Shown one piece after another: positions 23,202 through 47,191 of a stretch of DNA of 64,000 nucleotides. The DNA comes from an uncultured Planctomycetota bacterium (lineage in GTDB: Bacteria; Planctomycetota; Planctomycetia; Isosphaerales; Isosphaeraceae). Position numbers and translations under genes: made by a program. Within the stretch, counting starts at the first letter, position 1; each line of letters begins with the position of its first letter. The stretch lies in contig CAWJTV010000011.1 in the NCBI GenBank assembly GCA_963845755.1, positions 256,001-320,000 on the forward strand. Reading direction: 5' to 3'. Under the pieces are notes generated by a model that worked only from the letters and a program-made list of their open reading frames with translations, did not search any database and had not been told where the DNA came from.

Positions 23202-24255
23202 ATGGATCGAGTCTCACTTCGCCGTGGCTTTACGCTGATCGAACTCCTGGTCGTCATCGCCATCATCGCCGTACTCATCGCCCTTCTCTTGCCAGCCGTG
23301 CAGGCGGCACGCGAGGCCGCCCGACGGATGCAGTGCACCAACAATCTCAAGCAACTCGGCCTGGCCGCCATGAACTACGAGTCGTCGAACGGCACCTTGC
23401 CGCCAGGGAGCTACGTCGCGACTCGCGATTACGACAGTCGGAATAAGCCGGGCCTGAGCGTCTTCGTCCGGATCCTGCCCTTCGTCGAAGGCCAATCGAC
23501 CTTCAACGCGGCCAACTTCGCCTTCTCGCTGGAATCGTCGGCCAACGCCACCGTCGCCTCTGTCGGCGTGAGCACTCTCTGGTGCCCGAGCGACCCCTCG
23601 GTATTCAGCCCCACCGCGCCGATCGACTCGAGCTACAACTTGCCGAGCAATAGCACCCTCCAGCAATACTACTGCAGCTACGGCGGCAACATGGGACTCT
23701 GGGACCTCGACGTCCTCGCCACCGACGACGTGAACTGGTACCCCGGCGCCTTCGCCGCCCGCAAGGCGAACATGAACGGCGTGATCTTCATGTCCTCGAA
23801 CGTCCGACTGGCCGAGATTACCGACGGCACGAGCAACACCATGGTCTTCGCCGAGCACAACCATGGTCGGCTGGCATCGAACGCCCCCCCGGTGTTCTAT
23901 CAGTGGTGGAACTCCGGCTATTACACCGACACCCTCATCTGCACCTATTTCTCGGTCAATAGCGACACCAAGGCCACCCTGTTCGACGAATCAGCCGAGC
24001 GAATACTTCGAGATTGTCGGCAGCTTTCACCCCGGCGGTGCCAACGTCGGCTTCTGCGACGGCTCGGTGAGATTCATCAAGGACTCGATCCAGTCCCTCC
24101 CCTTCGTGTACAACCCATCGACGCAGGACAACGGCTACTTCCTCTATAACGGTAATACGGGCACCTACACGATCGCCGCGGGCACCCCGATGGGTGTCTG
24201 GCAGAAGCTCTCCACCCGCAACTTTGGCGAGGTCATCAGCTCCGACTCCTATTGA
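23202..24255 (+). CDS. DUF1559 prepilin-type N-terminal cleavage / H-X9-DG domain protein; frameshift near 24000
   Basis: [69 protein letters not shown] and GEVISSDSY*. Confidence 0.93.
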
Positions 24256-24296
24256 GAGTCTGTTCCAGAAGGGGCCGGTCCGGGCGAGCGGGGGGC

Positions 24297-25682
24297 TGTC
24301 ACCCGACAGTAGGTTTTGCCGCGGAATCCCGACATAAAGGTTTTGCCGCATGGACACCCGGCGGTCCCTACTTCCGTCCCGACAATCGCAACCCGCGGAT
24401 CGACTCCGCGTCGATCTCGGGGGCCGGCCGGGCCCGCAGGTTGCTGGCCCCCGCCGTCGTTGATCAGCCACTCGCCGTGCCCCGGGTCGAACTGGACCCA
24501 GACGTCCCGGCCCGCATACAACACTCCTACATAGATATTCCTGTTATAGATCGACACCTTTCCCTGGCTGTCCACCCGGCGCTGGCACGGCCCACTCCGC
24601 CAGGTGGTCGCGCACCCGCCCCAGGCACCACGCCGCCGGCCTCGTCCGCCTCGCGGTAGGCGCGGCCGCTGTGCGCCAGACCCGGGAACAGCTCCCAACG
24701 GCTGTGTCCCCCGGCGACGGGATACCGCTCCCGCTGCAGCCCGGTCGTCGGCGTCCAGGCGGGCCTGCAGCTCCGCCGGGTTGCCGCAGGCGTGCGGCTC
24801 CGCCCACCGCTTGGCCGTCCCCGCGACCGCTCCACCACGCCGTTCTGTTGCGGCCGTCGCGGGTCGTTCCAGATCACGCCGACCCCCAGGCCGATCAGCC
24901 ACAACGCCAGCGGCGGGGGCAGGTCCGCTCCAGGACCCCCACGGCTTGCCGTTATCGACCCGCATGTGGCGCAGGCAGCCCCCACCGCTCGAAGGCGCGG
25001 CGCAAGTGCCGCTGCACCTCGGCCTCGGGGACGTGGGCCCAGTAGTAGTGGGGGGAAAACCGTGGTGCCCAGGAAGGCCCCCGTATATTCATCCACCAGC
25101 CGCAGCCAGCAGGCGCCCGGCCGTCGGCCGTGCGGAGTTGCTCCGCGGCGTCCCTCTGCCAGATGTCATGCGGGGCGATGGCACGATCGGCGGCCGACGG
25201 CGCCCGCCGTCCCCCCGCCGCAGGCGGGTGCCGCTGGCGGCGGAACCAGCGCTGCAACGTGCGCTCGCTGGGCACCGTCGCCGGGTCGGCCTCGGTGGCC
25301 AGGCGGACGCGGATGTAGCCCGCTCCCCAGGTCGGATGCTGCTGTCGCAGGGCCAGGGCCAGGGCTCGGAGCGGGTGGTCGTCGGCGGGCCGCCCCGGAC
25401 CGGGCCGATAAGCGGTCCCCTGGGGGCTCGCCGGGTCGCGAGCCCGCTGGAGCAGGTGCCGGACCGTGCGGGGGCAGAGATGCAGGGCGTCCGCGATGGC
25501 CGCCGCGGTCTGGCCGCGACGGGATCGTAGCAAGATGAGGGCGCGGGTTGTCGGCGGGAGTGGAGCGGGCATAGTGACCCTCGCAGGAGTTGGCAGGATC
25601 GGACCATCACAGACTACCCCCCGCCGCGAGGCGGCAAAACCTTTTTGTCGGGATTCGCGGCAAAACCTACTGTCGGGTGACA
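24297..25682 (-). mobile_element. IS481-like insertion sequence (1386 bp)
   Basis: TGT...ACA ends and ~52-bp imperfect TIRs (TGTCACCCGACAGTAGGTTTTGCCGCG...), each with two CCCGACA..AGGTTTTGCCGC sub-repeats. 5-bp target duplication GGGGC (24292-24296, 25683-25687). Confidence 0.88.
24368..25572 (-). CDS. DDE transposase (HTH + integrase core), several frameshifts
   Basis: N-terminal HTH, LRQQHPTWGAGYI, PSERTLQRW, HDIWQRD, VDEYTG, RVDNGKPW, PQQNGVVERS and C-terminal RRVDSQGKVSIY, spread across three frames. Confidence 0.85.
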
Positions 25683-25866
25683 GGGGCGTCAGCCCCCTGT
25701 CTTCGAGGTCCGTCGCTCACCGGACAGGGGGCTGACGCCCGCCGCTCGCCCTTCTGGGACAGACTCTGAGGGGGAGAGTCTCTCGACGGCCCTGGAGAAA
25801 AAGAAATCCGTCCGGCCTGTGGACAACGGCTCGTGCTTGCCGGATATCTGATCAGGGAGCCGAACG

Positions 25867-26511
25867 ATGACCGAGCAGGCCGACGACGAAAACCAGATCC
25901 TCATCCATCGCGCTCTGGCCGGCGACGAGTCGGCGCTGGCTGCGCTTTTCGATAGCTATCGCGACCGGCTGCGGCGGATGATCCGCCTGCGGCTGGACCG
26001 CCGGCTCTCCGGCCGGGTCGATTCGTCGGATGTGCTCCAGGAGGCGTATCTCGACGTCCGCAAGCGGATTGCCGAGTACGCCCGCGACCCCGCGGCCATG
26101 CCGTTCCACCTCTGGCTCCGGCTGGTGACCGGCCAGAGGATGACCGACGTGCATCGCCATCACCTCGGCTCTCAGATGCGCGATGCCGGCATGGAGGTCT
26201 CGCTGCATCGCGGGCCGTTCCCCCAGGCCGACTCGATCTCGCTGGCCGCCCAGCTCCTCGGCAAGATGACCAGCGCCAGCAAGGCCGCGATCCGCGCCGA
26301 GCACAAGCTGATCGTCCAGGAGGCACTCAACGGCATGGATCCGATCGACCGGGAAGTCCTGGCCTTGCGACATTTCGAGCACCTCTCCAACGATGAGACG
26401 GCACAGGTACTCGGTCTGAGCAAGTCGGCGGCGAGCAACCGTTACATCCGGGCCCTGAAGCGGCTCAAAGAGATCCTGTCGTCCATCCCGGGACTGAGAG
26501 AGCAATTGTAG
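25867..26511 (+). CDS. ECF sigma-70 factor (planctomycete kinase-associated type)
   Basis: YRDRLRRMIRLRLDRRLSGRVDSSDVLQE, WLRLVT, DREVLALRHFEHLSNDETAQVLG and RYIRALKRL. Confidence 0.93.
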   Translation: MTEQADDENQILIHRALAGDESALAALFDSYRDRLRRMIRLRLDRRLSGRVDSSDVLQEAYLDVRKRIAEYARDPAAMPFHLWLRLVTGQRMTDVHRHHLGSQMRDAGMEVSLHRGPFPQADSISLAAQLLGKMTSASKAAIRAEHKLIVQEALNGMDPIDREVLALRHFEHLSNDETAQVLGLSKSAASNRYIRALKRLKEILSSIPGLREQL

Positions 26512-26629
26512 GACGTTCTTCGAGCATCGAGCACGTGCAAGGTGCCTGCCGGCGCCGATCCCTGCAATGAGCACCGATCGAAGACTCGTCGCTCACGGGC
26601 ACCCCACGGGCCACTGGAGAAGCACGCCG

Positions 26630-29600
26630 ATGAATACGTCGAGCGACCAGCGGAACCCCGTCGAGCTCCTGGCCGAGGAGTTCCTCGACCGCAAGCGCCG
26701 CGGCGAGCAGCCGACGCTCCGCGAGTACCTCGAGCGCTACCCCGAGCTGGCCGAGGAGATCCGCGACCTGTTCCCGGCCCTGCTGATGATGGAGGACCTG
26801 GGCGAGAGCTCCGGCGGCACCACCGGCTCGCTGGCCGCCGACGGCGCCGCGGTGGGTATCCGGCTCCAGCGGCTGGGCGATTATCGCATCCTCCGCGAGA
26901 TCGGCCGGGGCGGCATGGGCGTCGTCTACGAGGCCGAGCAGGAGTCGCTGGGCCGACGCGTGGCCTTGAAGGTCCTCTCGGCCGGCTCGCTGCTGGACCC
27001 GAAGCAGGTGCGGCGGTTCGAGCGCGAGGCCAGGGCCGCGGCACGGCTGCACCACACCAACATCGTGCCGGTCTTCGGCGTCGGGCCGGCAGGACGGCCA
27101 CCATTACTTCGTCATGCAGTTCATCGCGGGCGTGGGGCTCGACGTGGTCCTGGATGACCTGCGACGGCTGCGCCAGGCGAAGTCGGAGGCGGGGCCGGCC
27201 GCGGTGCTCGCGGCGGCGTCGAGCCGCATCGCCGGCCTGTCGGCGGCGGACGTGGCCCGATCGCTGCTCACCGGCCGGTTCGAGGCCGATGGGCCGCTCG
27301 GGGATGGGTCCATGACCGAGCCCTTCGACGACGCGGCTCCCGCGCCACCCGCCGGCGACAACGGCCCGCCGGCCGACTCCTCCCCGGCGATCCTGCCCGG
27401 CTCCTCCGAGCTGTCGGCCTCATCGGATCCCGACCGCCAGTTCTACCGCTCGATCGCCCGCATCGGCATCCAGGTGGCCGAGGCGCTGGAGTACGCCAAC
27501 CGCCAGGGCATCCTCCACCGCGACGTCAAGCCGTCGAACCTGCTGCTGGACAACCACGGCAACGTCTGGGTGGCCGACTTCGGTCTGGCCAAGACGGCCG
27601 AGGCCGATGACCTGACCCACACCGGCGACATCCTCGGCACGATCCGCTACATGGCCCCGGAGCGGTTCTCGGGGCATTGCGATGCGCGGTCGGACGTCTA
27701 CAGCCTGGGCCTGACGCTCTACGAGCTGGTGGCGTTGCGTCCGGCGTATGAGGCGTCGGATCGACATCGGCTGATGGAGCGGGTGCTGCACGAGGAGCCG
27801 GAGCGGTTGAAGAAGCTGGCTCCGGGCGTGCCGCGGGACCTGGAGACGATCATCGCCAAGGCGACGGCGCGAGACCCGGCGATGCGGTACGCGACGGCGG
27901 CGGCCATGGCCGAGGACCTGCGGCGGTACGTGGAGGACCGGCCGATCCGGGCGCGGCGGGTGTCGCTCTGCGGAGCGATTGGCGCGGTGGTGCCGGCGGA
28001 ACCCAGTGGCTGGCCGGCTCGATGGGCGTGGCGGCGGCTGTCACTGGTGATCGCGCTGGTGTTGGCCCTGGTCTATGCCGACGGCAAGCCGAGGCGAACC
28101 AGCGGATCACCCGGTTGGCCGAGCGACCTGGAGAAAGAGAGCAGCGCCCTGAAGGATGAGCGCCCGCATCGAGGAACGAGCGCGGCCGCCTCAAGACCGC
28201 CCTGTCCGAGTCGAACCGCCGGCTGGCCATGCTGGACCTGGAGCGAGGCCGGGTCGCCTTCGAGAAGGGGCAGGTCGGCCTCGGGATGCTCTGGACCGTC
28301 GAGTCGCTGCGGATGGCGACCGAGGCGGGCGACGAGGCCGGCAAGCACCTCGCCCTGGCCAACCTCTCGGCCTGGCGGCGCCAACTCGTCGAGCTCAAGA
28401 TGATCTTCTCCCCCATCGGCGATGTCATGTCGGTCGCCTTCAGCCCCGACGGCAAGACCATCCTCACCGGGAGCATGGACAAGACGGCGCGGCTGTGGGA
28501 CGCCGCCACCGGCCGGCCCATCGGCCAACCCCTGGTGCATTCGGCCTGGGTGATGTCGGTGGCGTTCAGCCCCGACGGCAAGGCCATCCTCACCGGGTGC
28601 TATGACAACGACGGCGCGGCTGTGGGACGCCGCAACCGGCCGGCCCATCGGCCCGCCCCTGGCGCATTCGGATATGGTGCGCGCCGTGGCGTTCAGCCCC
28701 GACGGCCAGACCATCCTCACCGGGTGCTATGACGGGACGGCGCGGTTGTGGGATGCCGCCACCGGCCGACCCATCGGCCAACCCCTGGCGCATTCGGGCC
28801 GGGTGACGTCCGTGGCGTTCAGCCCCGATGGCAAGACCATCCTCACCGGGGGCCAGGACAAGACGGCGCGGCTCTGGGACGCCGCGACCGGCCGGCCCAT
28901 CGGCCAACCCCTGGCGCATTCGGGCGCGGTGTGGTCCGTGGCGTTCAGCCCCGACGGCAAGACCATCCTCACGGCCGTTTTGACAAGACGGCGCGGCGGT
29001 GGGACGCCGCCACCGGCCGGCCCATCGGCCAACCCCTGGCGCATTCGGACATGGTGCACGCCGTGGCATTCAGCCCCGACGGCAAGACCATCCTCACCGG
29101 GTGCTAGGACAACACGGCCCAACTTGGGACGCCGTCACCGGCCAACAGATCGGCAGGTCCCTGGAGCATCAAGACCAGGTCTGGTCCGTGGCATTCAGCC
29201 CCGACGGCCGGTCGATCCTCACCGGCAGTCAGGACGGGATGGCGCGCCTCTGGGACGGCGCGGTCGGTCAGCCCGTCGGCCGGCCGCTGGATTATGGGAG
29301 GCGGTGGAGACGATGGCATTCGGCCCGGACGGCAAGACCCTCGTCGCCGCGGGTGCTGACGGCAAAGTGCGACTTCAGGACGTCGCGTCGGGCCATCTTC
29401 GCGGCCAGCCCGTGGAGCAGGGATCCGAATCCGTGCCGTGGCCTTGAGCCCGGATGGCCGGACGATCCTCACCGGGAGCGCTGACAAGACGGCGCGGCTC
29501 TGGGACGCCGACACCGGCCGGCCTCTCGGCCAACCCATTGGCATTCGGAGCAGGTGTGGACGGTGGCGTTCAGCCCCGACGGCCGGGCGATCCTCACCGG

Positions 29601-31080
29601 GAGCGCTGGGACAAGACGGCGCGGCTCTGGGACGCCGCCACCGGCCGGCCCATCGGCCAGCCCATGGTCCATCCGGGCGACGTGTTGTCCGTGGCGTTCA
29701 GCCCCGATGGCCAGACCATCGTCACCGGGAGCGATGACAAGACGGCGCGGCTCTGGGACGCCGCACACCGGGCGACCTCTCGGCCAGCCCATGGTGCATC
29801 CGGGCTTGGTGGTCAGTCGTGGCGTTCAGCCCGGATGGCCGGACCATCCTCACCGGGGGCTTGGACAAGACGGTGCGGCTCTGGGACGCCGCGACCGGCC
29901 GGCCCATCGGCCAACCCCTGCCGCATCCGGGCTATGTGAGGTCCGTGGCGTTCAGCCCCGATGGCCGGACCGTCCTCACCGGCTGTTAGGACAAGACGGC
30001 GCGGTTGTGGGACGCCGCCACCGGCCAGCCGATCGGCCCGCCTCTGCCGCATGCGAAGGCACTGGTGACGGTGGCGTTCAGCCCGGATGGTCGGTCCCTG
30101 CTCACGAGTGATCGCGAGACGGCGCGGTGGTGGGACGCGCCGGCGCCGCTGCCCGAGGACCTGCCGCGGCTGGCCGCCTGGGTCGAGGCCGTCACCGGGC
30201 TGGAGCTGGATGAGCGCGGCTCGATCCGCCTGCTCGACCGCGCCGCCTGGCTGGAGCGTCGGCGTCGTCTGGAGCAGCTCGGCGGCCCGCCCCGGCCGAT
30301 CCGTCGCCGCGGCTGGACCCGATCCTCTTCGGCCCCGAGCCGCGGCGCGGGGCGACGCCTGGAAGGAGCGGGGCGAATGGGATCGGGCCGAGGCCGCCTA
30401 CGCCGAGGTGATCCGCGCCCGACCGCTCAACCGATCGGTCCGGGACGCCCTGGCCCGCTTGCACGCCGAGCGCGGCCATCTCGACCGGGCCGCGGCGACG
30501 CTCGCCGACGCCGTCCAGCAGATGCCCGATGACGCGGGGCTCCGCCGTCGATGGGGGCTGGCCCTGCTCGGGTCGGGCGATCGCGCCGGCTGGCGGAATG
30601 CGACCGCCGCGCTGCTGGACCGCTTCGGCGGCACGATCAACCCACGGACGGCCAACCAGGTCGCCTGGGCCTGCGTCTCGGGGCCCGAGGCGGCCACCGA
30701 TCCCGCGGTGCCGGTCCGGCTGGCCGAGGCCGCCGTCCAGGGCGCCGACGAAACCCTCAAGGCCGACGCCTTGAGCACGCTCGGCGGCCGCGCTGTACCG
30801 CGCCGGCCGGTGCGACGAGGCGATCCGACGGCTGGAAGAAGGCAACCGGCTCCGAGGCGAGGAGGGTCTGCCTTCGGCCTGGCCGTTCCTGGCGATGGCC
30901 CATCACGGCCTGGGACATCACGATGAGGCGCGACGCTGGCTCGACCGACTGCGGGAGCGTCAGCCGAGCACGGACCCGGCCCAGTTCTGGGACGAGCTGG
31001 AGATTCGCCTGCTGCGCAGCGAGGCCGAGGCGCTGATTCTCTATGACCCGGTCTTCCCGGCCGACCCGTTCGCGCCGTGA
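26630..31080 (+). CDS. Ser/Thr kinase 1 - TM - 14 WD40 blades - TPR; many frameshifts and two in-frame TAG codons
   Basis: [24 protein letters not shown] and YMAPE. 126-bp blades [34 protein letters not shown]. Ends [11 protein letters not shown]. Confidence 0.88.
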
Positions 31081-31204
31081 TGGCCGGCCTCGGGAGCTCA
31101 GCCCGATGGTTGTCGGGTGGGTGAAACCCACCGATGACGTCGTCTGGTTACCAGTGGATTTCATCCAACTTACCACATCAACGCGATCCCGAAAGGAGCC
31201 TCCG

Positions 31205-31573
31205 ATGCCGAACTCCGACTTCCAGCACATCCGCATGAGCATGGTCAACGACGTGGCGGTGGTCGAGATCCGCACCAAGGACGTGCAGGGCACGAAGCTG
31301 GCCCAGGAGCTCGGCGCCGAGCTGGCCCTGGTCACGACCCAGGATTGGGCCAAGCGACTCCTGGTCAACTTTCACCGGGTCGGCTACTTCGGCAGCACGG
31401 GCTTCGCCGTGCTGTTCAAGCTGGTCAGCCAGGCCAAGGCCGACGGTCGGGAGGTCAAGTTCTGCGACATGAAGCCGGAGGTGCGCCTCGGGGCCGAGAT
31501 CGTCGGCCTCGAGAAGGTCGCTGCGATCCACGAGAACGAGCGGTCGGCCCTGACCGCTTTCGCGCACGCCTGA
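31205..31573 (+). CDS. STAS domain anti-sigma-factor antagonist-like protein
   Basis: AAGGAG RBS; LLVNFHRVGYFGSTGFAVL...GREVKFC...VGLEK pattern. Confidence 0.85.
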   Translation: MPNSDFQHIRMSMVNDVAVVEIRTKDVQGTKLAQELGAELALVTTQDWAKRLLVNFHRVGYFGSTGFAVLFKLVSQAKADGREVKFCDMKPEVRLGAEIVGLEKVAAIHENERSALTAFAHA

Positions 31574-31594
31574 GCCGTCCCCAGGAGGCCCCCG

Positions 31595-34500
31595 ATGACG
31601 ACGTCCAGCGATGCGCGCAACCCGTCGAGCTGCTGGCCGAGGAGTTCCTCGAACGCAAGCGCCGTGGCGAGCAGCCGACGCTCCGCGAATACCTCAGCGC
31701 CACCCCGAGCTGGCCGAGGAGATCCGCGACCTGTTCCCGGCGCTGTTGATGATGGAGGACCTGGGCGAGAGCTCCGGCGGCACCACCGGCTCGCTGGCCG
31801 CCGACGGCGTCGCGGTGGGGGTGAGGCTCCAGCGGCTGGGCGATTACCGCATCCTCCGCGAGATCGGCCGGGGCGGCATGGGCGTGGTCTACGAGGCCGA
31901 GCAGGAGTCGCTGGGCCGGCGCGTCGCCCTGAAGGTCCTCTCGGCCGGCTCGCTCCTGGACCCCAAGCAGGTGCGGCGGTTCGAGCGGGAGGCGAAGGCC
32001 GCGGCCAGGCTGCACCACACCAACATCGTGCCCGTCTTCGGCGTGGGCCGGCAGGACGGCCACCATTATTTCGTGATGCAGTTCATCGCGGGCGTGGGAC
32101 TCGACGTGGTCCTGGATGACCTGCGGCGGCTGCGCCAGGCGAAGTCGGAGGCAGGGCCGGCCGCGGGGCTCGTCGCGGCATCGAGCCGCATCGCCGGCCT
32201 GTCGGCGGCGGACGTGGCCCGCTCGCTGCTCACCGGCCGGTTCGAGGCCGATGCCGACCTCGTGGATGGGTCCATGACCGAGCCCTTCGACGACGCGGCT
32301 CCCGGCCCAACCACCGCAGTCAACGGCCCCCCGACCGACTCCTCCCCGGCGATCCTGCCCGGCTCCTCCGAGCTGTCGGCCTCGTCGGATCCCGACCGGC
32401 AGTTCTACCGCTCGATCGCCCGGATCGGCGTCCAGGTGGCCGAGGCGCTGGAGTACGCCAACCGCCAGGGCATCCTCCACCGCGACGTCAAGCCGTCGAA
32501 CCTGCTGCTGGACAACCACGGCAACGTGTGGGTGGCCGACTTCGGTCTGGCCAAGACGGCCGAGGCCGACGACCTGACCCATACCGGCGACATCCTGGGC
32601 ACCATTCGCTACATGGCACCGGAGCGGTTCTCGGGCCATTGCGATGCGCGGAGGGACGTCTACAGCCTGGGCCTGACGCTGTACGAGCTGGTGGCGTTGC
32701 GGCCGGCGTATGAGGCGACCGACCGGCATCGGCTGATGGATCGGGTTCTGCACGAGGAGCCGGAGCGGCTGGAAGAAGCTGGCTCCGAGCGTGCCGCGGG
32801 ACCTGGAGACGATCGTCGCCAAGGCGACGGCGCGCGACCCGGCGGCGCGGTACGCGACGGCAGCCGCGCTGGCGGAGGACCTGCGGCGGTTCGTCGAGGA
32901 CCGGCCGATCCGGGCGCGGCGGACCTCGCCGGCGGAGCGGCTGGCGCGGTGGTGCCGGCGGAACAAGGGGCTGGCGGCGGCGATCGGCCTGGCGGCGGTG
33001 GCGCTGGTGGCCGCGGTCGTCTTGTCGCTGCCTACGCCGAGCAGCAGCCCGGGACTCGCGGCTGCCCGGAAGCTCGACGCCGCCGAACAAGCCCACGCGC
33101 CGACGACAGGCTGCGGCGGCGGCGAGCACAAGGCCGCCCTGTCCGAGTCGAACCGCCGGCTGGCGATGCTCGACCTGGAGCGAGGCCGGGTCGCCTTCGA
33201 GAAGGGGCAGGTCGGCGTCGGGATGCTCTGGACTTTCGAGTCGCTGCGGATGGCGACCATGGCGGGCGACGAGGCCGGCCGGCATGTGGCCCTGGCCAAC
33301 CTGTCGGCCTGGCGCCGCCACCTCGTCGAGCCGAAGGCTGTTTTCCCCCTGGCGATGTGGTGGGCTCGGTCGCCTTCAGCCCCGACGGCAAGATCTTCGT
33401 GACGGGATGCCGATGGCAACACGGCGCGGCTCTGGGACGTCGCCATCGGCCGGCCCATCGGCAAGCCCTTGCTGCAGCCGGTGCAGTCCGTCGATAGCGT
33501 TCAGTCCCGACGGCCGGATCCTCCTCACGGGATGCGCCGAGGGCCACCTGGCGCAGCTCTGGGACGTCGCCACGGGCAAGCCCATCGGCCCGCCCCTGGT
33601 GCATTCGGGCCCGGTGACCTCGGTGGCGTTCAGCCCGGATGGCAAGACCATCCTCATCGGGGGGACAGCCAGTGACAACCTGTCCGTGGAAGCCACCCTC
33701 CCCGGGGGATCCGAGGACGGCGCGGCTCTGGGACGTCGCCACGGGCAAGCCAATCGACCCGCCCTTGCTGCATCCGGGCCCGGTGATGTCGGTGGCGTTC
33801 AGCCCCAACGGCAAGACGATCCTCACGGGAAGTACTGACACTACGGCGCGGCAGTGGACGCCCATACCGGTCGGCCTATCGGCCAACCTCTGGCGCATTC
33901 GGGCACCGTGACGGCCGTGACTTTCAGTCCGGATGGTCGGACCATCCTCACCGGGAGCTCCGACAAGACGGCACGGCTCTGGGACGCCGCCACCAGCCGG
34001 CCCATCGGCCAGCCTCTGGCCCATTCGGCCAGGTTGTGCTCCGTGGCCTTGAGCCCAGACGGCAAGACCATCCTCACCGGGGGCTTTGATGGCTCGGCCC
34101 AATTGTGGGACGCCGCCACAGGTCGCCGATGGGCAGGCCACTGGACCATCCAGGCATCGTCTGGGCTGTGGCGTTCAGCCCCGACGGCAAGACGATCCTC
34201 ACCGGCAGCACGGACTGGGCAGCGCGACTCTGGGATGGCGGGATCGGTCAGCTCGTCGGCCAGCCGCTGGACTATGGAGCTCGGTGGTGGACGTGGCATT
34301 TAGCCCCGACGGCAAGACCCTCGTCGTCGCGAGCGGTGACGGTAAAGTACGACTCCGTGACGTCGCGTCAGGCCAGCTTCGCGGCCAGACCGTGGAGCAG
34401 GGGTCCCCGATCATTCACGTGGCATTGAGCCCGGATGGCCGCACAATCCTCACATCGGGTTTCGACAAGACGGCGCGGCTCTGGGACGCCGATACCGGCC

Positions 34501-36494
34501 GGCCTGTCGGCCAGCCCATGCTGCATCCGGGCGGGGTGCGGGGGGTGGCGTTCAGCCCGGATGGCAAGACCATCCTCACCGGGAGCTCTTACCAGACGGC
34601 GCGGGTCTGGGACGCCCACACCGGGCGGCCGATCAGCCTGCACTTGGAGCAGGCGGAGCCCATGCCCAGCGTGGCGTTCAGCCCGGATGGCAAGACCATC
34701 CTCACCGGGGGGATCGACAGGACGGCGCGGCTCTGGGACGTCGCCACGGGCAAGCCCATCGGCCCGCCCCTGGTGCATTGGGCCCCGGTGGCGTCGGTGG
34801 CGTTGAGCCCTGACGGCCAGACTGTCCTCACCGGTAGCTCGGACAGGACGGCGCGACTCTGGGACGCCCAGACCGGCCGGCCCATCGGCCAACCCCTGGA
34901 ACATCCGGATATGGTGGGGTCGGTGGCGTTCAGCCCCGACGGCAAGACCATCCTCACCGGCTGTGCGGACCTTGCGGCCCGGTTATGGGATACCGTCACC
35001 GGCCGGCCCATCGGCCGGCCCATGCCGCATGCTTCATCACGACCCAGACGGAATTGCGCGGCATTCAGCCCCGATGGGCGGTTCGTGCTCACGAATGATC
35101 TCAGAACGGTGCGGCTGTGGGATGTCCCGGCGCCGCTGCCCGAGGACCTCCCACGGCTGGCGGCCTGGGTCGAGACTGCCACCGGCCTGCAGCTGGATGA
35201 GCGCGGCTCGATCCACGTGCTCGATCGCGCCGTCTGGCTGGAACGCCGGAGCCGGCTGGAGCAGCTCGGCGGCCCGCCGCCGCCCGATCCGGCCTCGCGG
35301 CTGGACCCGATCCTCTTCGGAGCGGATCCGGCGGCGCGGGGCGACGCCTGGAAGCAGCGGGGCCACTGGGACCGCGCCGAGGAAGCCTACGCCGAGGCGA
35401 TCCGCGCCCGGCCGCTGGAACGATCGGCTTGGGATGCCCTGGCCCGCCTGCACGCCGAGCGCGGCCAGCTCGACCGGGCCGCGGCGACACTCGCCGACGC
35501 CGTCCGGCGGATGCCCGAGGACACGGGCCTCCGCCGTCGATGGGGACTGGCCCTGCTGGAGTCGGGCGATCGGTCCGGCTGGCAGGTGACCGCCGCGCTG
35601 CTGGATCGTTTGGGCAGCACGATCAACCCCCGGACGGCAAGCGATGTGGCCTGGGTCTGCGCCTTGGGGCCCGACGCGACCGGCGATCCCGGCCGGCCTC
35701 TCCGGCTGGCCGAGGCCGCCGTCGAAGGCGCCGAGGAACGCTTCAAGGCCGACGCCTTGAGGACGCTCGGCGCCGCACTGTACCGCGCCGGCCGGTACGA
35801 CGAGGCGATCCGACGGCTCGAGGAAGGCAACCGACTCCCGGGCGGTGAGGGTCTGCCTTCGGCCTGGCCGTTCCTGGCGATGGCCCACCACCGCCTGGGT
35901 CACCGCGATGAGGCACACCGATGGCTCGACCGCCTGCGCGAGCATCAGCCTAGCCTGGATTCCCATGGAGGCAAAAACGGGGTAGGCTACGACGCAATCC
36001 ATAAAACGAAGCAAAATTCGTCGAAGTGGGTTTTCCCCTGGATTTCAAGTGGTTCTGGCTTGAAACGGCTCATCGAAACGCCTCTCTCGATGTTAGGTGA
36101 TCCGTAAACTGAAAAAAGAGCATCCACGGTGTCAACTCAATGCATCCACTGTGGTGAATTCGATAGATTTGTCGCAAGAACCCCTTGTTTTCCAGGAGGA
36201 AGTGAGATTCGATCGACGAACATATCATCCATGGTGATCAAGTTAACATAGTGGGAGACCCACCTTTAACTCTTGGAGGAGCATAACCAGTTCCGAGGCG
36301 AAAAGCTGAGTATCGCGGGCTTTTTTCCAATCATGCGGCAACAAATGTTAGCCCAATCTGCCTCCATGGGAATCCAGGCTAGCAACGACCCGTCGCAATT
36401 CTGGGACGAACTGGAGATCCGTCTGCTGGGCAGCGAGGCTGAGGGCGTAGTCTGTTATGATCCCGCGTTCCCGGACGACCCGTTCGCGCGTTGA
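31595..36494 (+). CDS. Ser/Thr kinase 2 - TM - 14 WD40 blades - TPR; frameshifted, 3' end interrupted by a MITE
   Basis: Paralog of kinase 1 in the same blade register. The original tail [19 protein letters not shown]...DPAFPDDPFAR* is split by the insertion at 35954-36378. Confidence 0.85.
35954..36378. mobile_element. 425-bp non-autonomous element (MITE) with IS1380-like ends
   Basis: Perfect 20-bp TIR CCTGGATTCCCATGGAGGCA, with CTAG duplicated (35950-35953, 36379-36382). Visibly lower GC and no transposase ORF. Confidence 0.88.
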
Positions 36495-36591
36495 CCGGCG
36501 GGCGATGTCGAGTGGGGTTCCCGGCTCCGCCCTCCGCCGGACTGAAGGTCTCCAGAGACGTAGGATCCATCGAAGGACCAGGAGCCGACCC

Positions 36592-39500
36592 ATGAACACC
36601 TCCAGCGACGCAGCGCAACCCCGTCGAGCTCCTGGCCGAGGAGTTCCTCGACCGCAAGCGCCGCGGCGAGCAGCCCACGCTCCGCGAGTACCTCGACGCC
36701 ATCCCGACCTGGCCGACGAGATCCGCGACCTGTTCCCGGCGCTCCTCATGATGGAGGACCTCGGCGAGAGCTCCGGCGCCACCACCGGCTCGCTGGCCGC
36801 CGACGGCGCCGCGGTAGGGGTGCGGCTCCAGCGGCTGGGCGATTACCGCATCCTCCGCGAGATCGGCCGGGGCGGCATGGGCGTGGTCTACGAGGCCGAG
36901 CAGGAGTCGCTGGGCCGACGCGTGGCCTTGAAGGTCCTCTCGGCCGGCTCGCTGCTGGACCCGAAGCAAGTCCGGCGGTTCGAGCGCGAGGCCAAGGCCG
37001 CGGCGCGGCTGCACCACACCAACATCGTGCCGGTCTTCGGCGTGGGCCGGCAGGACGGGCACCATTATTTCGTGATGCAGTTCATCGCGGGCGTGGGGCT
37101 CGACGTGGTCCTGGACGACCTGCGGCGGCTCACGGGCGAAGTCCGAGGCGAGTCCGGCCGCGATGCCCGCGCCGGCGGCGAGCCGGATCGCCGGCCTGAC
37201 GGCCGCCGAGGTGGCCCGGTCGCTGATCGCCGGCCGGTTCGACGGCCGATGGGCCGCCGCTGGACGGGTCCGTGACCGAGCCTTCGAGGACGCCGACCCC
37301 GCCCAACCACCGCCGCCAACGGCCCCCCGGCCGACTCCTCCCCGGCGATCCTGCCCGGCTCCTCCGAGCTGTCGGCGTCGTCGGATCCCGACCGCCAGTT
37401 CTACCGCTCGATCGCCCGCATCGGCATCCAGGTCGCCGAGGCCCTAGAGTACGCCAACCGCCAGGGCATCCTCCACCGCGACGTCAAGCCCTCCAACCTC
37501 CTGCTGGACAACCACGGCAACGTCTGGGTGGCCGACTTCGGTCTGGCCAAGACCGCCGAGGCCGACGACCTGACGCATACCGGCGACATCCTGGGCACCA
37601 TCCGCTACATGGCCCCCGAGCGGTTCTCGGGCCATTGCGACGCGCGGTCTGACGTCTACAGCCTGGGCTTGACGCTCTACGAGCTGGTGGCGTTGCGGCC
37701 GGCGTATCGAGGCATCCGACCGCCATACGCTCATGGACCGCGTGCTGCACGAGGAGCCGGAGCGGTTGAAGAGGCTGGCTCCGGGGGTGCCGCGGGACCT
37801 GGAGACGATCATCGCCAAGGCGACGGCGCGGGACCCGGCGGCGCGGTACGCGACGGCGGCGGCACTGGCGGAGGACCTGCGGCGGTTCGTGGAGGACCGT
37901 CCGATCCGGGCGCGGCGGGTGTCGCTGGCGGAGCGGGCGTGGCGGTGGTCGCGGCGGAACAAGGCTCTGGCGGGACTGATGGCGGTCGTGGCCGCTTTGT
38001 TGATCGTCGTAGCCGTTGGCTCGATGCTTTCCGCTCTTCAATTCCGGGGGATGAATCGGAACCTAGAGGGAATGAACCGGACCTTGGAATCGAACCTCTA
38101 CTTCAGCAATGTCGCCCTGTGGCACCCCAGGAGTGCATCGCGGACAACCCGGGGCCTCAGCCGAGCCATTGCTCTACGGCTGCCCGACCCACCTGCGCGG
38201 TTGGGAGTGGCATTACTTGAAGCGCCAGAGTTCTACAGCCCTGCTGACAATCCCCGCGCACGACTCACATACCTTCAGCGTGGCGTACAGTCCGGACGGT
38301 AAGACACTGGCCACCGCGAGCGAGGACGGGACCGTCCGGACCTTCGACGCGGCGAGCGGCCGTCGGCTCCGCACGCTCCTTGCTCACTATCCGAACATCT
38401 GCTGGCGGGCGACTTATACCGCCGATGGGACAATGCTCGTCTCGGCCGGCCGCGACAAGACCGTAAAGATCTGGGATCCAGCGACCGGCGACTTGATTCG
38501 TGTTCTCGGCGGGCACCTGGATACGGTCTGGAGCGGCGAATTCAGTGCCGACGGCAGTCTCCTGACCTCGTCCACTCCCGGGCTCGTTCGAGTGTGGGAT
38601 ACGAAAACGTGGAGCGAGATCCGCAAGCTACCGGGCGGATGGTTCACGAGGTTCAGTCCCGATGGCTCTATGCTCGCATCGTCGGGCCTCGGCCCGGCTC
38701 GAGTTTGGATGACATCCAGCTTGCGCGACGAAGTGGACCCCCATCCGCGGACCTTCGGTGCAAAGGAGGACAACTCGCGGGTCGCCTTCAGCCCGGATAG
38801 TCGATCGATCGCCTTCGGTGCCAGGGACAACTCCGTGATGATCGTGGACCTGAAGAGCGGCCTGCCTGCCTTCAAGCCTCTGGTCGGACACACGAACTAC
38901 GTCTGGGAGCTGTGTTACAGCCACGACGGTTCCTATCTCGCATCGACCAGCGCCACCGGACCGTGAAGGTCTGGGATGCGAAGACGGGTCGCTTGCTCCA
39001 TACGTATCTGGGACATACGAATCGCACCACCGGTCTGTCTTTCGCCCCCGACTCGCGCCGGCTAGCCTCAGCCAGCGTGGACGGAACCGTGAAGATCTGG
39101 GACCTGGCCGATCTGCGAGAACCGGCGGTCCAGGCTGCGCGCACTCTCCCCCGCCACCCCGGCTCCGCACTCAGCGTGACGCATCGCCCATCCGGCCGAT
39201 TCTTCGCCACCGCCCACGGGTTCGATATCAATCACACCGCCACAGTGGGTCGGCGACAAGAACCGCCCCGGATTGAGTCGGTGACAATCTGGGATGCGAA
39301 GTCCAACAATGAGGTCCACACCCTCACCGTCCCTGATCCCGCGGCGGGTGCCTGCCACGATGTCGCCTTCGACAAGGACTTCGGGCGTATCGCGTGGGCC
39401 AGGGGCAACGGGACGATTGAGATCCGGGACGCGGCGACCGGCCGGCTGATCCACGTCCTGACGGGCCACAATGAGTGTGCCTGGCGGGTGGCCTTCAGCC

Positions 39501-40093
39501 CCGATGGGCGGTTGCTAGCCTCGGCGGGCCGCGACGCGACCGTGCGGGTCTGGGACACGGCGACCGGGCGACCCTTGTATACTCTGCCCGGAGTTAGCGA
39601 CCTGATCGTGGGTCTTGGGTTCAGTCCCGACGGCCGGCGGCTCGCCCTGGCGGGAGCGGACTTCGATCTGCTCAAACCCTCTCAATTGCGGGTCTGGGAT
39701 GTGGCGACCGGCCGGCCGCTCGGCGTACTCGGCGAGTCCTTCGACTACGCCACCATGGCGTTCCACTCCGGCGAGCCACGGCTCGCCCGATCGGTCGGCG
39801 CGGAAATCTTCGTTCTGGACGTGATGACCGGCGGAGAGTTACTCCGCCTTCGTGGGCATACCGAAGCCATCACAAGCATGGCCTACAGCCCCGACGGCCG
39901 CCGTCTCGCCTCAGTCGCGCATGACGGGACCGTCAAGCTCTGGGACTCGGCGACTGGCCGGGAAATCCTCACATTGCTCCACGGCCGCAGCGAATTGATG
40001 ACGGGCGTGAGCTTCAGCCCCGACGGCCGGCAGATCGTCACGACCAGCGAGAGCGGGACCATCAAGGTCTGGGATGCGACACCGTTACCGTGA
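36592..40093 (+). CDS. Ser/Thr kinase 3 - TM - divergent WD40 domain (no TPR); frameshifted
   Basis: Kinase region nearly identical to kinases 1 and 2, then LRGWEWHYL and heterogeneous GH...WD repeats ending IKVWDATPLP*. Confidence 0.87.
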
Positions 40094-40168
40094 GCATCAA
40101 GAGCGGCGAAGACCAACGACGGCCGAGCGAATGGAGTGACAGGGTCCGCAACCGGGGAGCACAAAGCG

Positions 40169-43100
40169 ATGGCTACCTCCAGCGATGAGCGCAACCCCGT
40201 CGAGCTGTTAGCCGAGGAGTTCCTCGACCGCAAGCGCCGCGGCGAGCAGCCGACGTTGCGCGAATACCTCGGCCGCCATCCCGACCTGGCCGATGAGATC
40301 CGCGACCTGTTCCCGGCCCTGCTCATGATGGAGGACCTGGGTGAGAGTTCCGGCGATACCTCGGGGTCGTTGGCCGCCGATCACGGCGCGGCGGTGGGTT
40401 TCCGCCTGCGGCGGGTGGGCGACTACCGAATCTTGCGCGAGATTGGCCGAGGGGGCATGGGCGTCGTTTATGAGGCGGAGCAGGAGTCGCTGGGCCGCCG
40501 CGTCGCCTTGAAGGTCCTCTCGGCCGGCTCGCTGCCCGACCCCAAGCATCTGCGGCGGTTCGAGCGCGAGGCCAGGGCCGCGGCGCGGCTGCACCACACC
40601 AACATCGTCCCGGTCTTCGGCGTCGGCCAGCAGGACGGCAACCATTACCTCGTGATGCAGTTCATCGCGGGCATGGGGCTCGACCTGGTTCTCGAGGACC
40701 TGCGTCAGCTCCGGCGGGCGAAGGCCGACGCGGGCCAGGCCTCGGGGTCCGCGCCGCCGGTGTACGACCCGGCCGGGCCGACGGCCGACGTGATCGCTCG
40801 CTCGCTGATGACCGGCCGGTTCGCCGCGGCCAGCACGGTCACCGTGCGCCTCGGAGAGTCGCCCCCGGACGTCTCTCTGCTGCTCCCCAGAGACGGGCCC
40901 GGGGCCGACGCCGGCTCCCGTCCGGCGCCCTGACCGGCGCCTCCGACCTTTCGGCCCTGGCTGACTCTGACCGGCGGTACTATCAGAGCGTGGCCCGGAT
41001 CGGCGTGCAGGTCGCCGAGGCCCTCGAGTATGCCAACCGCCAGGGCGTCCTCCATCGCGACGTCAAGCCGTCGAATCTCCTGCTGGATAGCCGCGGCAAC
41101 GTCTGGGTCGCCGACTTCGGGCTGGCCAAGACGGCTGAGGCCGATGACCTGACTCACACAGGCGACATCCTGGGCACCATCCGCTATATGGCCCCCGAGC
41201 GGTTCTCGGGCCATTGCGACGCGCGGTCGGATGTATACAGCCTGGGCCTGACACTCTATGAGCTGGTGGCACTGCGGCCGGCGTTCCAGGCGACCGACCG
41301 GCACGCGCTGATCGACCGGGTGCGGCACGGCGAGCCGGATCGGCTCAAGAAGGTGGTGCCGGGCGTGCCGCGGGACCTGGAGACGATCATCGCCAAGGCG
41401 ATCGCCCGCGACCCGTCGGCACGGTATGCGACCGCCGGCGCGCTCGCGGAGGACTTGCAGCGGTTCGTGGAGGACCGGCCGATCCGGGCGCGGCGGGTGT
41501 CGGCGTCCGAGCGGCTGGTCCGATGGTGTCGGCGCAACCCCTGGATCGCCGGGTCAATCGGCGTGGCGGCGTCCGCGACGGTCGGCTTGTTCGTGCTGGC
41601 GCTGGTGTACGCCGCGGATCGAGATCGTTTCGCCAAGCAACAGACCATTCGCGTCGCCGAGCAGACGAAGGCGACCAACGAGATCACGCGGTTAGCCGGC
41701 GCCCTCGAGCGGCGCGGCAAGGCCCTCGAGTCGTCCCTGGCCGAGTCGACCCGCCGACTGGCGATGCTCGACTTCGAGCACGGGCGAATCGCCTGCGAGC
41801 AGGGGCAGATCGGACCTGGGTTGGTCTGGATGATCGAGAGCCTGCGCACCGCCACCGACGCGGGCGATCCGGCCTGGAGGCATGCCGCCCTGGCCAGCCT
41901 CTCCGATTGGCGGCGATACCACACCGACCTGAAGGGCATCTTCACTCATCAGGGCGCCGTCGCCGCCGTCGCGATGAGCCCTGACGGCGCGATGGTCCTC
42001 ACCGGGAGCTACGACAAGACGGCGCAGCTCTGGAATGCCGCGACCGGCCAACCCATCGGAAGGCCGCTCTCGCACGAGAGGCGGATCGTGGCCGTGGCCT
42101 TCAGCCCGGACGGCAAGACCGTCGCCACCGGGAGCTACGACAAGACGGCGCGGCTCTGGGACGCCAGCACCGGCCAGCCCATCGGAGAGCCGCTCCCGCA
42201 TCACGCCGAGGTCCTGGCCCTGGCCTTCAGCCCCGATGGCAAGGCCATCCTCAGCGGCTGCTGGGATCAGACGGCGCGGCTCTGGGACGTCGACACCGGC
42301 CAACCCACCGGAAAGCCGCTCTCACATCAGAGCGGGGTCGCCGCCGTGGCGTTCAGCCCCGACGGCAAATCCATCGTCACCGGCTGTCAAGACCGGACGG
42401 CGCGGCTCTGGGACGCCGGCACCGGTCAGCCTGTCGCCAAGCCCATGGAGCATCCTGACGCGGTCGTGGCCGTGGCCTTCAGCCCCGATGGCAAGACGAT
42501 CCTCACCGGCTGCCGTGACGGCAAGGCGCGGCTCTGGGACGCCGACACCGGACGACTGTTCGGCCAACCCATGGAGCATTCGGGCTGGGTCCTCAGCGTG
42601 GCGTTCAGCCCGGATGGCAAGACCGCCGTCACCGGGAGCTCGGACCGGACGGCGCGGCTCTGGGACGCCGACACGGGACGACCCATCGGCCATCCCCTGC
42701 CGCAATCGGGCGAGGTCGTGGTCGTGGAGTTCAGCCCGGATGGCAAGACCGTCATCACCGTGGATCAGGTGGGGATGACACGGTTGTGGGACCCCGCCAC
42801 GGGCCGCCCCGTCGGATCGTCCTCCGCGGGTTCGGAGGAGGCCGCTACCGTGACGCTCAGTCCCGACCATAGGACCCTCCTCATCGTCAGCGAGGACGGA
42901 ACGTTACGGCGCTGGGACGCCGCTACGGGCCGACCCGTCGGATCGCCCCTACCTTACCACGGTGTGGTCATGGATGTGGCGTTAAGCTTCGACGGCAAAC
43001 GGATACTCACCGGAGGCTATGACAAGACGGCGCGGCTGTGGGACGCTGCTACTGGCCGACCCCTCGGCCCGCAACTCCGGCATTCTGCCGCGGTCGAATC

Positions 43101-44227
43101 GGTGGCCTTCAGCCCCGATGACAAGACGATCCTCACCGGCAGCCAGGATGGTACGGCGCGGTTGTGGGACGCCGCGACCGGCCAGCCGATCGCCAGGCCC
43201 CTGGAGCATCGCGACATGGTCGTTAGCGTGGCGTTCAGCCCCGACGGCCAGACCATCCTCACCTCTGACAAGAGCATCCTCGCCAGCAACCCGAGAGGGA
43301 CGGTACGACTGTGGGAAACCCCGAAGCCAGTCCCCGACGATCTCCCGCGCCTCACCGCCTGGGTGACCACTTCCACCGGCCTGGAGTTGGATGAGCAAGG
43401 GGCGATCCGGGTCCTCGACGGTGACACCTGGTGGCGGCGCCGCGTCCAACTTCGTGAACTGGGCGGCCCGCCCGCAGCCGGTCCCGCGCAGTCGCTCGAC
43501 CCGATCCTCCTCGGTCTCGACCCGACGGCCCGGGCCCGCGCCTGGAATCCAGCGCAACCGCTGGGCGGAGGCCGAAGCCGCCCTCGACGAGGCCGTTGCC
43601 GCGCGACCACTGAACCGCGACGTTCGGACCGAGCGCGGTCGGTTCTACCTGGCCCGTGCACAGCCGGAAAAGGCCGCCTCCAACTTCGCCGAGGCTGTCT
43701 TGCTCGATCCGGCCGACCTCGCCGCCCGACATGACCTGATCCTGGCGCTGTTGGCCGCCGGCGATCGCGACGGAGTGCGGCGGGCAGCCGCCGACCTGCT
43801 CGACCGGTTCGGCACGACGGCCGATCCAGACGAGGCCAACAAGGTTGCCTGGTCCTACGTCCTGGCGCCCGACCCGGTCGCCGACTGTGAGGCCCTGGTG
43901 CGACTGGCCGAGAACACCTTGAAGACTCACGGTGCGGCCTTGTACCGGGCCGGTCGGTACGACGAGGCGATCCGACGGCTCGAGGAAGGCTTTCCGCTTC
44001 GGAACGGCACGAACGTGCCACAGGGCTGGGCGTTCCTCGCCATGGCTCATTGCCGGCTCGGTCACCAGACCGAGGCCCACCGCTGGCTCGACCGGCTGAA
44101 ACAGCATCAGCCCAGCACGGACCCGGCTCAATTCTGGAACGAGCTGGAGGTCCGCCTGCTGCGGAGCGAGGCCGAGGCTGTGGTCCTTCATGATCCCGCG
44201 TTCCCGAGCGATCCGTTCGCATCATGA
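40169..44227 (+). CDS. Ser/Thr kinase 4 - TM - 11 WD40 blades - TPR; frameshifts near 40900 and 43545
   Basis: Same N-terminal [19 protein letters not shown] motif, complete kinase motifs, 42-aa blades, and ends DPAFPSDPFAS*. Confidence 0.9.
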
Positions 44228-46572: not shown

Positions 46573-46891
46573 CGCGCTTCGGCGCAACCGTGTTGCTTTC
46601 GTCGTGCCTCGCGCGGGATGCTGGAGGGACGTGCGGCGACGGCGGGACGGTCGTCGAAGTCGAGTCGGTGAGGCGCGGCCATGCCGGAGATGGCGAAGAC
46701 TCCGGCCGCTGAAAGCGCCTCCCGAATGCGTTGGGCACAGCGGCGCTCGGTGTTGCGCGGGCACCGCTCGAGCGTGAGGTGCTCGAGAACCGTCCACCTG
46801 ATAACAGGTGGAATAACGTGCGGGTCAATCGTACACTAAATGCATTGACGCCAATATAACTAAATAATATATTTAAATCTTTGGCAATTTT

Positions 46892-47191
46892 ATGCACATT
46901 ATTTTTGAACTGACCTATGATGTGTTTCTCTCGCACGGATCGCCCGACAAGCCGTGGGTGCGCACGCTCTGCGACGAGCTCGTCAAGTTGGGCCTGAGCG
47001 CCTTCCTCGACGAGCGCGAGCTGGAGACCGGCGAGAACTGGACGCTCCGTCTCAGCCGGGAGCTGAACCAGAGCCGCGCCCTGGCCCTGGTGATCTCGAC
47101 CCAGGCGCTGGAGCGCCCGTGGGTCGATCACGAGTGGACCTCGTTCCTGGCCAAGCATGGGCCGACGTCCGGCCGGCTGATCCCTAGGTGA
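46892..47191 (+). pseudogene. Truncated TIR domain
   Basis: YDVFLSH, AFLDEREL..GENW, LNQSRALALVIS and PWVDHEW; stops right after RLIP. Confidence 0.78.

Follow-up and report, generated by a model that had tools for sequence, protein, structure and literature searches.

To our knowledge, the way in which Hanks-type kinases activate extracytoplasmic function (ECF) sigma factors has been elucidated for just two pairs, both from proteobacteria, and we know of no planctomycete pair that has been studied. Ordinary ECF sigma factors carry the sequence DAED in sigma2. Here we analyzed a stretch of 64,000 nucleotides from the genome of an uncultured Planctomycetota bacterium of soil (hereafter the window; G000:C11:256001-320000), in which one ECF sigma factor gene is followed by four co-oriented genes for receptor-type Hanks kinases (K1-K4) with a gene for a STAS protein embedded among them.

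In ECF sigma factors regulated by Ser/Thr protein kinases, uncharged residues are found in place of DAED, and a phospho-threonine (ECF43) or a phospho-serine (ECF59/60) restores the contact to the β′ clamp (PMC8103513). The groups ECF43, ECF59-62, ECF217, ECF267 and ECF283 are associated with kinases and mostly lack an anti-sigma factor (PMC7826278), and both the pairing of ECFs with kinases and the WD40/TPR receptor kinases of planctomycetes have already been published (PMC7826278, PMC11032199). The pairs PknS-EcfK of Xanthomonas citri and PknT-EcfP of Vibrio parahaemolyticus (ECF43) each consist of an ECF without an anti-sigma factor, encoded beside a single-pass receptor Hanks kinase, with Ser or Thr in place of the acidic sigma2 contact and conserved Ser/Thr residues in the linker between sigma2 and sigma4 (PMC13147305, PMC8103513). 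Their kinases have a conserved helical N-terminal extension ahead of the catalytic domain and a periplasmic repeat sensor, which is TPR in PknS (PMC13147305). PknS phosphorylates EcfK at T51 and at residues of the sigma2-sigma4 linker, and its conserved helical N-terminal segment of 83 residues is left unexplained (PMC13147305).

The locus described here has the same traits, with sensors that are presumably also periplasmic. It differs from PknS and PknT in that four kinases stand behind one sigma factor and in that sensing is assigned to double propellers of WD40 repeats, to which TPR may or may not be added. The candidate acceptor, unlike that of ECF43, is a serine within the sequence DSSD, as described for the ECF59/60 types (PMC8103513), and docking of the N-terminal extension on sigma4 is predicted here, whereas it is not stated for PknS in the available text (PMC13147305).

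We consider it fairly probable that the locus is a many-to-one version of the known module in which phosphorylation by a Hanks kinase switches on an ECF sigma factor. In the mechanism that we infer, the sigma factor, which has a serine where DAED would make an acidic contact with RNA polymerase, would be served by four tandem paralogous single-pass receptor kinases encoded downstream of it. The cytoplasmic N-terminal motif of each kinase would dock on sigma domain 4 and be followed by a kinase domain with all catalytic motifs; on the far side of the membrane there would be a pair of WD40 propellers, with TPR added in three of the four. Phosphotransfer from the kinases to the sigma factor would make the array an OR-gate, in which any of several periplasmic ligands turns on one regulon. 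The array would have originated by tandem duplication, and gene conversion would keep the docking motif and the kinase half alike, so that all copies would stay matched to the same sigma factor. The sensors would diverge through point changes at variable blade positions and through blades gained or lost; in K3 the sensor as a whole would have been exchanged.

The array consists of six co-oriented genes on the + strand, spanning positions 25867-44227, with the following features:

25867..26511, + strand: ECF sigma factor, 214 aa; PF08281, PF04545, PF07638
26630..31080, + strand: K1, with N-terminal motif, Hanks kinase domain, transmembrane helix, 14 WD40 blades and TPR
26654..26810, + strand: N-terminal helical motif of K1, predicted sigma4-docking element; [10 protein letters not shown]...[11 protein letters not shown]
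28393..30140, + strand: WD40 array of K1, 14 blades in units of 42 aa
31205..31573, + strand: STAS protein, 122 aa, single domain; PF01740
31595..36494, + strand: K2, architecture like that of K1, with 14 blades and TPR; 3′ end split by a miniature inverted-repeat transposable element (MITE)
35950..36382, no strand: MITE-like element, 433 bp, with a perfect terminal inverted repeat of 24 bp
36592..40093, + strand: K3, with a K1-type front to ~37960 and an unrelated WD40 sensor, without TPR
40169..44227, + strand: K4, with N-terminal motif (40193-40348), kinase domain, transmembrane helix, 11 WD40 blades and TPR
26630..28014 (K1), 31595-32977 (K2) and 36592-37960 (K3), + strand: homogenized tract, attributed to gene conversion from windowed identities and synonymous distances

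The gaps between the genes are 22-125 bp; K1 starts 119 bp past the ECF stop codon, and the STAS gene ends 22 bp before K2. The ATG codons at 26630, 31595, 36592 and 40169 and the end at 44227 were verified. Pfam matches and coordinates thus agree with the gene content and order given by the initial annotation of this DNA, which was made from the sequence without database searches.

The sigma factor consists of sigma2 and sigma4 only, with PF07638, PF08281 and PF04545 matching across residues 13-202 of 214; Sigma70_ECF and Sigma70_r4_2 are assigned to 25867-26508. It scored 73.9 bits against TIGR02937 (cut-off 42.9) and 179.3 bits against the nearest NCBIfam model, TIGR02984 (Planctomycetaceae subfamily 1), slightly under the cut-off of 183.75. 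The DAED site of sigma2 reads DSSD (D52 S53 S54 D55). S54 is almost invariant across 12 aligned ECF relatives, and the alignment of relatives showed a conserved T135/S136/S138 cluster in the sigma2-sigma4 linker. Among the 48 ECFs matched by tblastn across the genome, 40 have a Ser at the position of the DAED Glu, or 42 with this locus and a Thr-Ser variant included; the other six comprise five matches with Glu or Asp at this position and one that is unaligned. No anti-sigma family was detected by a profile scan of the 24 open reading frames (ORFs) of the window outside the array and of 21 array fragments. The traits of kinase-regulated ECFs that are seen here are the restriction to sigma2 and sigma4, the adjoining Hanks kinase and the replacement of DAED by phosphorylatable residues; by analogy with the described families, we regard DSSD in place of DAED as the hallmark of a kinase-activated ECF.

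The 5′ ends of K1, K2, K3 and K4 encode the same N-terminal motif, in which A15, F18, R23, I44, R45 and P49 are invariant. The 78-aa kinase N-terminus matched no Pfam family at E values up to 10 and no PDB sequence better than E 0.19, and the motif found only unannotated planctomycete clusters of 70-83 aa in the Protein Atlas. We predicted the complex of the sigma factor with residues 1-78 of K4 using our own alignments of 12 and 10 rows. The ipSAE values were 0.68, 0.67 and 0.68, with 0.01 for the best of three controls; in the benchmark, 116 of 157 solved complexes attained this mark, as did 2 of 215 mismatched pairs. At least 74% of the contacts were common to the runs, and the pLDDT of the partner was at least 69. 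The predicted interface brings together sigma4 residues 165-204 and kinase residues 6-23 and 46-58. Reading of the sequences showed that the interface residues are identical in K1-K4 save for position 7, and that the few differences within the motif (positions 35-42) fall outside the predicted interface. The modeled complex suggests that the N-terminal motif probably docks on sigma domain 4. Since the motif has no Pfam family, PDB sequence relative or annotated Atlas cluster, it is less likely that the prediction rests on memory of a similar complex, but this is possible at the level of the fold. The score is a measure of the confidence of the model and was obtained with small alignments (12 and 10 rows), which weighs against the docking.

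The initial annotation had proposed that the four kinases feed one sigma factor. This can be kept as something that we infer from DSSD and from the modeled docking of the motif on sigma4, and to that extent only. A further-reaching proposal is that the motif might be a built-in, anti-sigma-like tether of sigma4. In this joint proposal the kinase would hold the sigma factor at the membrane and free it through phosphorylation of Ser54 and of the linker, and gene conversion would keep tether and kinase of all array members matched to the one sigma factor. The periplasmic WD40 faces would diversify under selection, with blades gained and lost and entire sensors swapped, and the STAS protein would add partner switching. 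Taken together, these elements make a combination that we find doubtful. If it were true, the array would be a repertoire of bacterial receptors whose evolution resembles that of immune-receptor clusters, and the STAS protein would make it a Hanks-kinase version of partner switching.

The association of the motif with ECFs was found across the genome, which comprises 14.27 Mb in 49 contigs with a completeness of 87.9%. We located 163 Hanks-kinase loci by tblastn, and relatives of the ECF gave 39 matches at E ≤ 1e-20, or 43 loci with the tblastn filter. The scan for the N-terminal motif counted 44 kinases, from which K2 and K3 are absent because their motifs are frameshifted. Of these kinases, 31 start less than 400 bp downstream of an ECF, six are located further along the same array (within 20 kb) and seven have no ECF within 1.5 kb; conversely, 31 of the 43 ECF loci have a motif-bearing kinase less than 400 bp downstream. 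By these counts the genome holds ~43 modules of an ECF with a kinase and no fewer than 4-5 arrays with several kinases, and the locus is not a singular case. The other arrays are located at C33:438000-451400 (an ECF and three kinases), C39:77000-99000, C19:101500-112500 and C25:108000-124200, and in them the 5′ halves are 82-90% identical between copies, with divergent 3′ halves. At C39, an ECF and the start of a kinase have been duplicated as one unit (87% over 1574 bp).

These counts bear on the possibility that the genes are neighbors only, that is, that the kinases act on neither the sigma factor nor the STAS protein, have other substrates, and owe their co-orientation to the history of duplication. 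Hanks kinases are often pleiotropic, and the seven of 44 motif-bearing kinases without a nearby ECF fit this explanation and count against a dedicated link of the motif to ECFs. Nevertheless, we consider it improbable, as 31 of the 44 kinases stand directly behind an ECF and six more within arrays, the sigma factor has DSSD for DAED, no anti-sigma gene was found among the scanned ORFs, the docking model scored 0.68 against 0.01 for the controls, and PknT-EcfP and PknS-EcfK provide experimental precedents.

All four kinases contain Pkinase and WD40 domains according to Pfam, and TPR was found in K1, K2 and K4 and not in K3. In translations that follow the reading frame across frameshifts, the catalytic motifs VAxK, HRDxKxxN, DFG and APE are complete in K1-K4, and the [15 protein letters not shown] and APE motifs are common to all of them. 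The layout comprises the N-terminal motif (~55 residues), the kinase domain, one transmembrane helix, a helical stretch and the WD40 blades. The transmembrane helix is legible in K2, K3 and K4, and the corresponding region of K1 is garbled by frameshifts. Our counts of 14, 14 and 11 blades for K1, K2 and K4, the TPR in these three kinases, and the unrelated WD40 sensor of K3 without TPR are all as initially described; the length of the K3 sensor suggests ~14 blades. The blades of K1 are 73-83% identical to one another at the DNA level. By analogy with the kinases described in PMC11032199, we place the sensors in the periplasm.

K4 is the most diverged copy and also the cleanest. A search with its long ORF returned 7980 of 8000 scored candidates at E ≤ 1e-30, with full-length relatives of ~1470-1500 aa; the best non-self matches, among the matches listed, are up to 65% identical, and several of them occur as pairs or triples on one contig.

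Comparison of the four genes at the DNA level by blastn gave identities of 91.3% over 1379 bp (K1-K3), 90.0% over 1403 bp (K2-K3) and 83.0% over 4418 bp (K1-K2, with ~93% in the kinase part), and of 74.9% (K1-K4) and 81.4% over the kinase part (K3-K4). The matches have E = 0 across kilobases, and judged by these alignments the paralogy is far beyond chance. K1-K3 are ~90-93% identical across the N-terminal motif and the kinase domain, so that their description as almost identical was overstated. In windows of 150-200 bp, K1 and K2 are 89-97% identical in the kinase domain, 54% in the transmembrane helix and linker, 92% just beyond, 72-83% in the blades and 83-89% in the TPR. These values bear out the idea of a constant cytoplasmic module joined to variable sensors. 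The sharp drop of identity expected at the transmembrane helix was found as a clean break in K3 only; K1 and K2 are homologous from end to end, with graded divergence and no swapped domain. Domain swapping, which had been proposed for the array, thus applies to K3, whose sensor is unrelated, and not to K1 and K2. On these comparisons K3 is the sole true chimera, with a K1-type front end and a foreign sensor. The best paralog of this sensor in the same genome has ~40-41% amino-acid identity, and no match at E ≤ 1e-85 was found in 30 relatives.

The history of the two halves was followed through synonymous distances (dS; NG86) with the help of two related genomes, G001 and G012, whose ECFs are 91% identical to the one described here. 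Behind these ECFs there is one kinase in G001 and there are two in tandem in G012, compared with four in the window, which supports the expected turnover in copy number. In the kinase domain, dS was 0.19 for K1-K2, 0.23 for K1-K3 and 0.27 for K2-K3, compared with 0.28-0.32 to the G012 ortholog (G012A; 0.32 for K1), and the distances of K1-K3 to K4, G012B and G001A were 0.42-0.54. At the WD40 scaffold positions the order is reversed, with 0.20 for K1-G012A, 0.33 for K1-K2 and 0.37 for K2-G012A. Counts at 4-fold sites were 40/269 versus 66/258 in the kinase domain (Fisher p = 0.002), and 60/248 versus 49/277 (p = 0.07) and 74/244 versus 49/277 (p = 0.0009) in the WD40 part. These distances are most simply read as the result of gene conversion, which the initial annotation had supposed, with the 5′ 1.4 kb converted between members of the array after the sensors had diverged. 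Two points weigh against it: the WD40 side of the topology test reaches p = 0.07 only, and G012A and G001A are orthologs by similarity alone, because synteny does not extend to the flanks of their loci (none of nine flanking proteins was matched in G001 and G012).

The dN/dS ratio was 0.19-0.23 in the kinase domain, 0.36-0.43 at the WD40 scaffold positions and 0.47-0.55 in the TPR. We treated separately 10 variable positions per blade, which were picked from the blades of K4 itself to avoid circularity. At these positions dN/dS between K1 and G012A was 1.89 (bootstrap 95% 1.16-3.28; 0.2% of resamples ≤1), which suggests diversifying selection. The signal is tempered by the value for K1 versus K2, which was 1.13 (0.72-1.77), and by the basis of the figure of 1.89, namely 119 codons analyzed by NG86 in a GC-biased genome with a noisy assembly of the ortholog. 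The variable positions fall in the stretches H-x-x-x, G-S-x-D-x and G-x-P-L-x, which we take to be the D-A and B-C loops on the ligand-facing top face of WD40 propellers.

The STAS protein (ORF 31037-31570) scored 33.7 bits with PF01740 (cut-off 22.6) and 34.6 bits with TIGR00377, below its cut-off of 53.45. It carries a G-S-T-G stretch at what we assume to be the place of the phospho-serine motif of SpoIIAA. Neither a kinase of the RsbW/SpoIIAB type nor a PP2C phosphatase was found among the 24 ORFs of the window outside the array and the 21 array fragments. One paralog with 46% identity is located elsewhere in the genome (C11:904468), without a kinase neighbor. Because the STAS gene is absent from both related loci, G001 and G012, we regard the protein, from this comparison, as a lineage-specific add-on and not a core part of the system. 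By analogy it is, at low confidence, a probable additional substrate of the kinases.

The biggest weakness of the finding is the state of the assembly, in which none of K1-K4 is a single open reading frame. We followed the coding frame with a Viterbi path based on codon usage, for which 518 ORFs of the same genome, each 900 aa or longer, served as the training set; it was used instead of a GC3 frame plot, which was dropped as too noisy within the WD40 repeats. The path switched frame ~16-17 times in K1, ~10-12 times in K2, ~5-8 times in K3 and ~3 times in K4 (these counts include a few tiny terminal segments), and the two frameshifts of K4 are located at ~40915 and ~43545. An alignment of K1, K2 and the G012 ortholog contained 67 indel events, in which those with lengths other than a multiple of three were mostly private 1-bp events not tied to long homopolymers. 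The K1 lineage had 17 such indels (13 of 1 bp; 7 insertions and 10 deletions) and none with a length that is a multiple of three, together with 54 synonymous and 53 non-synonymous substitutions, of which 24 and 7, respectively, were in the kinase domain. No in-frame stop was found along the path of ~5500 codons, which is weak evidence, as the path was built to avoid stops. The G012 and G001 assemblies contain private 1-bp indels of the same kind, and their completeness (60% and 87%) is low for their few contigs. Because these indels are all of lengths other than a multiple of three, the substitutions look selected, no in-frame stop occurs and the assemblies of the relatives are alike, we read the frameshifts as consensus errors of a long-read metagenome assembly and not as decay, and we hold this to be likely.

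The frameshifts could nevertheless be real, and several observations count against consensus errors. The damage is local, as uninterrupted frames of up to 1902 aa occur elsewhere in the window; 21 of 42 other kinases with the N-terminal motif have no frame switch in their first 1.4 kb, and the array is far denser in switches than most paralogs. High counts elsewhere occur in secondary array copies (14 at C39:94198, 7 at C25:113318, 4 each at C25:118236 and C19:107383, and 3 at C33), a clustering that also fits decay by birth and death. Taken as an internal control for errors, the copy of the MITE in K2 departs from the consensus by two differences; two or more are likewise seen in 5 of the 19 others. 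If the array were such a graveyard, left by repeated tandem duplication, K1-K3, and perhaps K4, would be pseudogenes, and no more than one kinase would still work with the sigma factor. The ~16, 12, 8 and 3 frame switches of K1-K4 and the MITE within K2 would fit this, and copies diverged by 7-25% should not confuse read mapping. Set against this explanation are the selected appearance of the substitutions in the K1-lineage kinase domain (24 synonymous versus 7 non-synonymous), the 17 of 17 lineage-specific indels that break the frame, mostly by 1 bp and with insertions and deletions balanced, the stop-free path and the private 1-bp indels shared in kind with the G012 and G001 assemblies. We therefore regard the graveyard as unlikely and keep consensus errors as the preferred account of the frameshifts. 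For genome scans this is a caution, in that an apparent array of pseudogenes is most likely a local consensus problem.

A more radical artifact would be that the assembler had wrongly set in tandem what are only the versions of one or two genes in different strains or haplotypes. The assembly is of the metagenome type with a locally poor consensus, and the relatives carry one or two copies, as such an artifact would lead one to expect, but the copies here are 7-25% apart, with different sensors, different blade numbers and a private MITE. The array is located in the middle of the 1.49-Mb contig C11, G012 also has a tandem of kinases, and there are four other arrays in the genome. This explanation seems to us very improbable.

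The MITE that interrupts K2 near its 3′ end is probably real. It has a low GC content and ~20 further copies in the genome (21 blastn matches, of which 19 were aligned), for example G000:C11:979784-980215 and C47:49794-50228. In their core, 12 of these 19 aligned copies match the consensus exactly, so that the burst is recent. The element splits off the last ~35 codons of K2: the assembled frame stops at 36107, inside it, and the original C-terminus is found at ~36383-36494.

A scan of the locus for promoters and terminators gave 3 and 6 sites, compared with 1.2 and 5.4 expected, and none was above chance. The only upstream stretch conserved across the three related loci is that of ~70 bp before the ECF start (25790-25866), which contains a possible promoter, TGGACA and GATATC with a 17-nt spacer, followed by a GGGAG ribosome-binding site. 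Just upstream of the ECF gene, two overlapping ORFs on the - strand (24252-25088 and 24955-25716) resemble a transposase in two frames, the second having a homeodomain-like helix-turn-helix (PF13384). Downstream of the array, on the + strand, a TIR-domain ORF (46877-47188; PF13676, 3e-19) is followed in another frame by a TPR ORF (47181-47915), and the two may be one TIR-TPR gene with a frameshift. An intact Hanks kinase of 842 aa (48738-51263, - strand) has ~350 residues ahead of its kinase domain and does not have the ECF-linked N-terminal motif, and an intact ORF of 1902 aa (54527-60232, + strand) encodes Ig repeats of the ASH/HYDIN/CFAP65-like type. Other neighboring genes belong to signature planctomycete families (DUF1501, PSCyt2/DUF1549, PSD1/DUF1553 and DUF1559); together with the number of kinases, these families suggested a Gemmataceae-like genome.

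Planctomycetes hold dozens of ECF-kinase pairs per genome, and how each kinase finds its sigma factor may have a candidate answer in the sigma4-docking motif of 50 residues, which would also explain the N-terminal segment of PknS. The locus bears on the question of how the signals of several sensors can converge on one regulon, and on how such wiring may be kept during the diversification of the sensors, namely by gene conversion of the signaling half. In Gemmataceae, ~100-140 kinases per genome have arisen by lineage-specific expansion (PMC11032199), and these kinases likewise consist of a cytoplasmic Pkinase domain, a transmembrane helix and periplasmic WD40/TPR arrays (PMC11032199); the genome studied here has 163 kinase loci. 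Arrays behind a single ECF, a concerted kinase half and fast blade positions are not described in the available text of that account, in which "gene conversion" has 0 occurrences (PMC11032199). For the STAS protein the closest precedent is PknD of Mycobacterium tuberculosis, a receptor Hanks kinase with a β-propeller sensor that phosphorylates the STAS homolog Rv0516c (PMC1847690), whereas the STAS protein here is only a candidate substrate, with no RsbW-type partner or PP2C among the scanned ORFs.

The initial annotation had likened the locus to an innate-immune receptor cluster, and this likeness holds for the evolutionary mode and not for the core domain, as Pfam found no NTPase domain of the NACHT or NB-ARC type in any of the four kinases. 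NLR-type clusters contain highly conserved WD40 repeats with a few hypervariable positions and show turnover in the numbers of copies and repeats. Convergence of several sensor kinases on one regulator is familiar from two-component networks. In contrast to both, the chemistry proposed here would run from a Hanks kinase to a sigma factor, with no NACHT/NB-ARC, death or effector domain. The likeness to immune-receptor clusters would therefore be one of evolutionary mode, drawn by analogy, and not of family. What appears to be new, compared with these systems, is the many-to-one array, the contrast between a signaling half that evolves in concert and sensors that evolve fast, the chimeric K3 and the candidate sigma-docking element.

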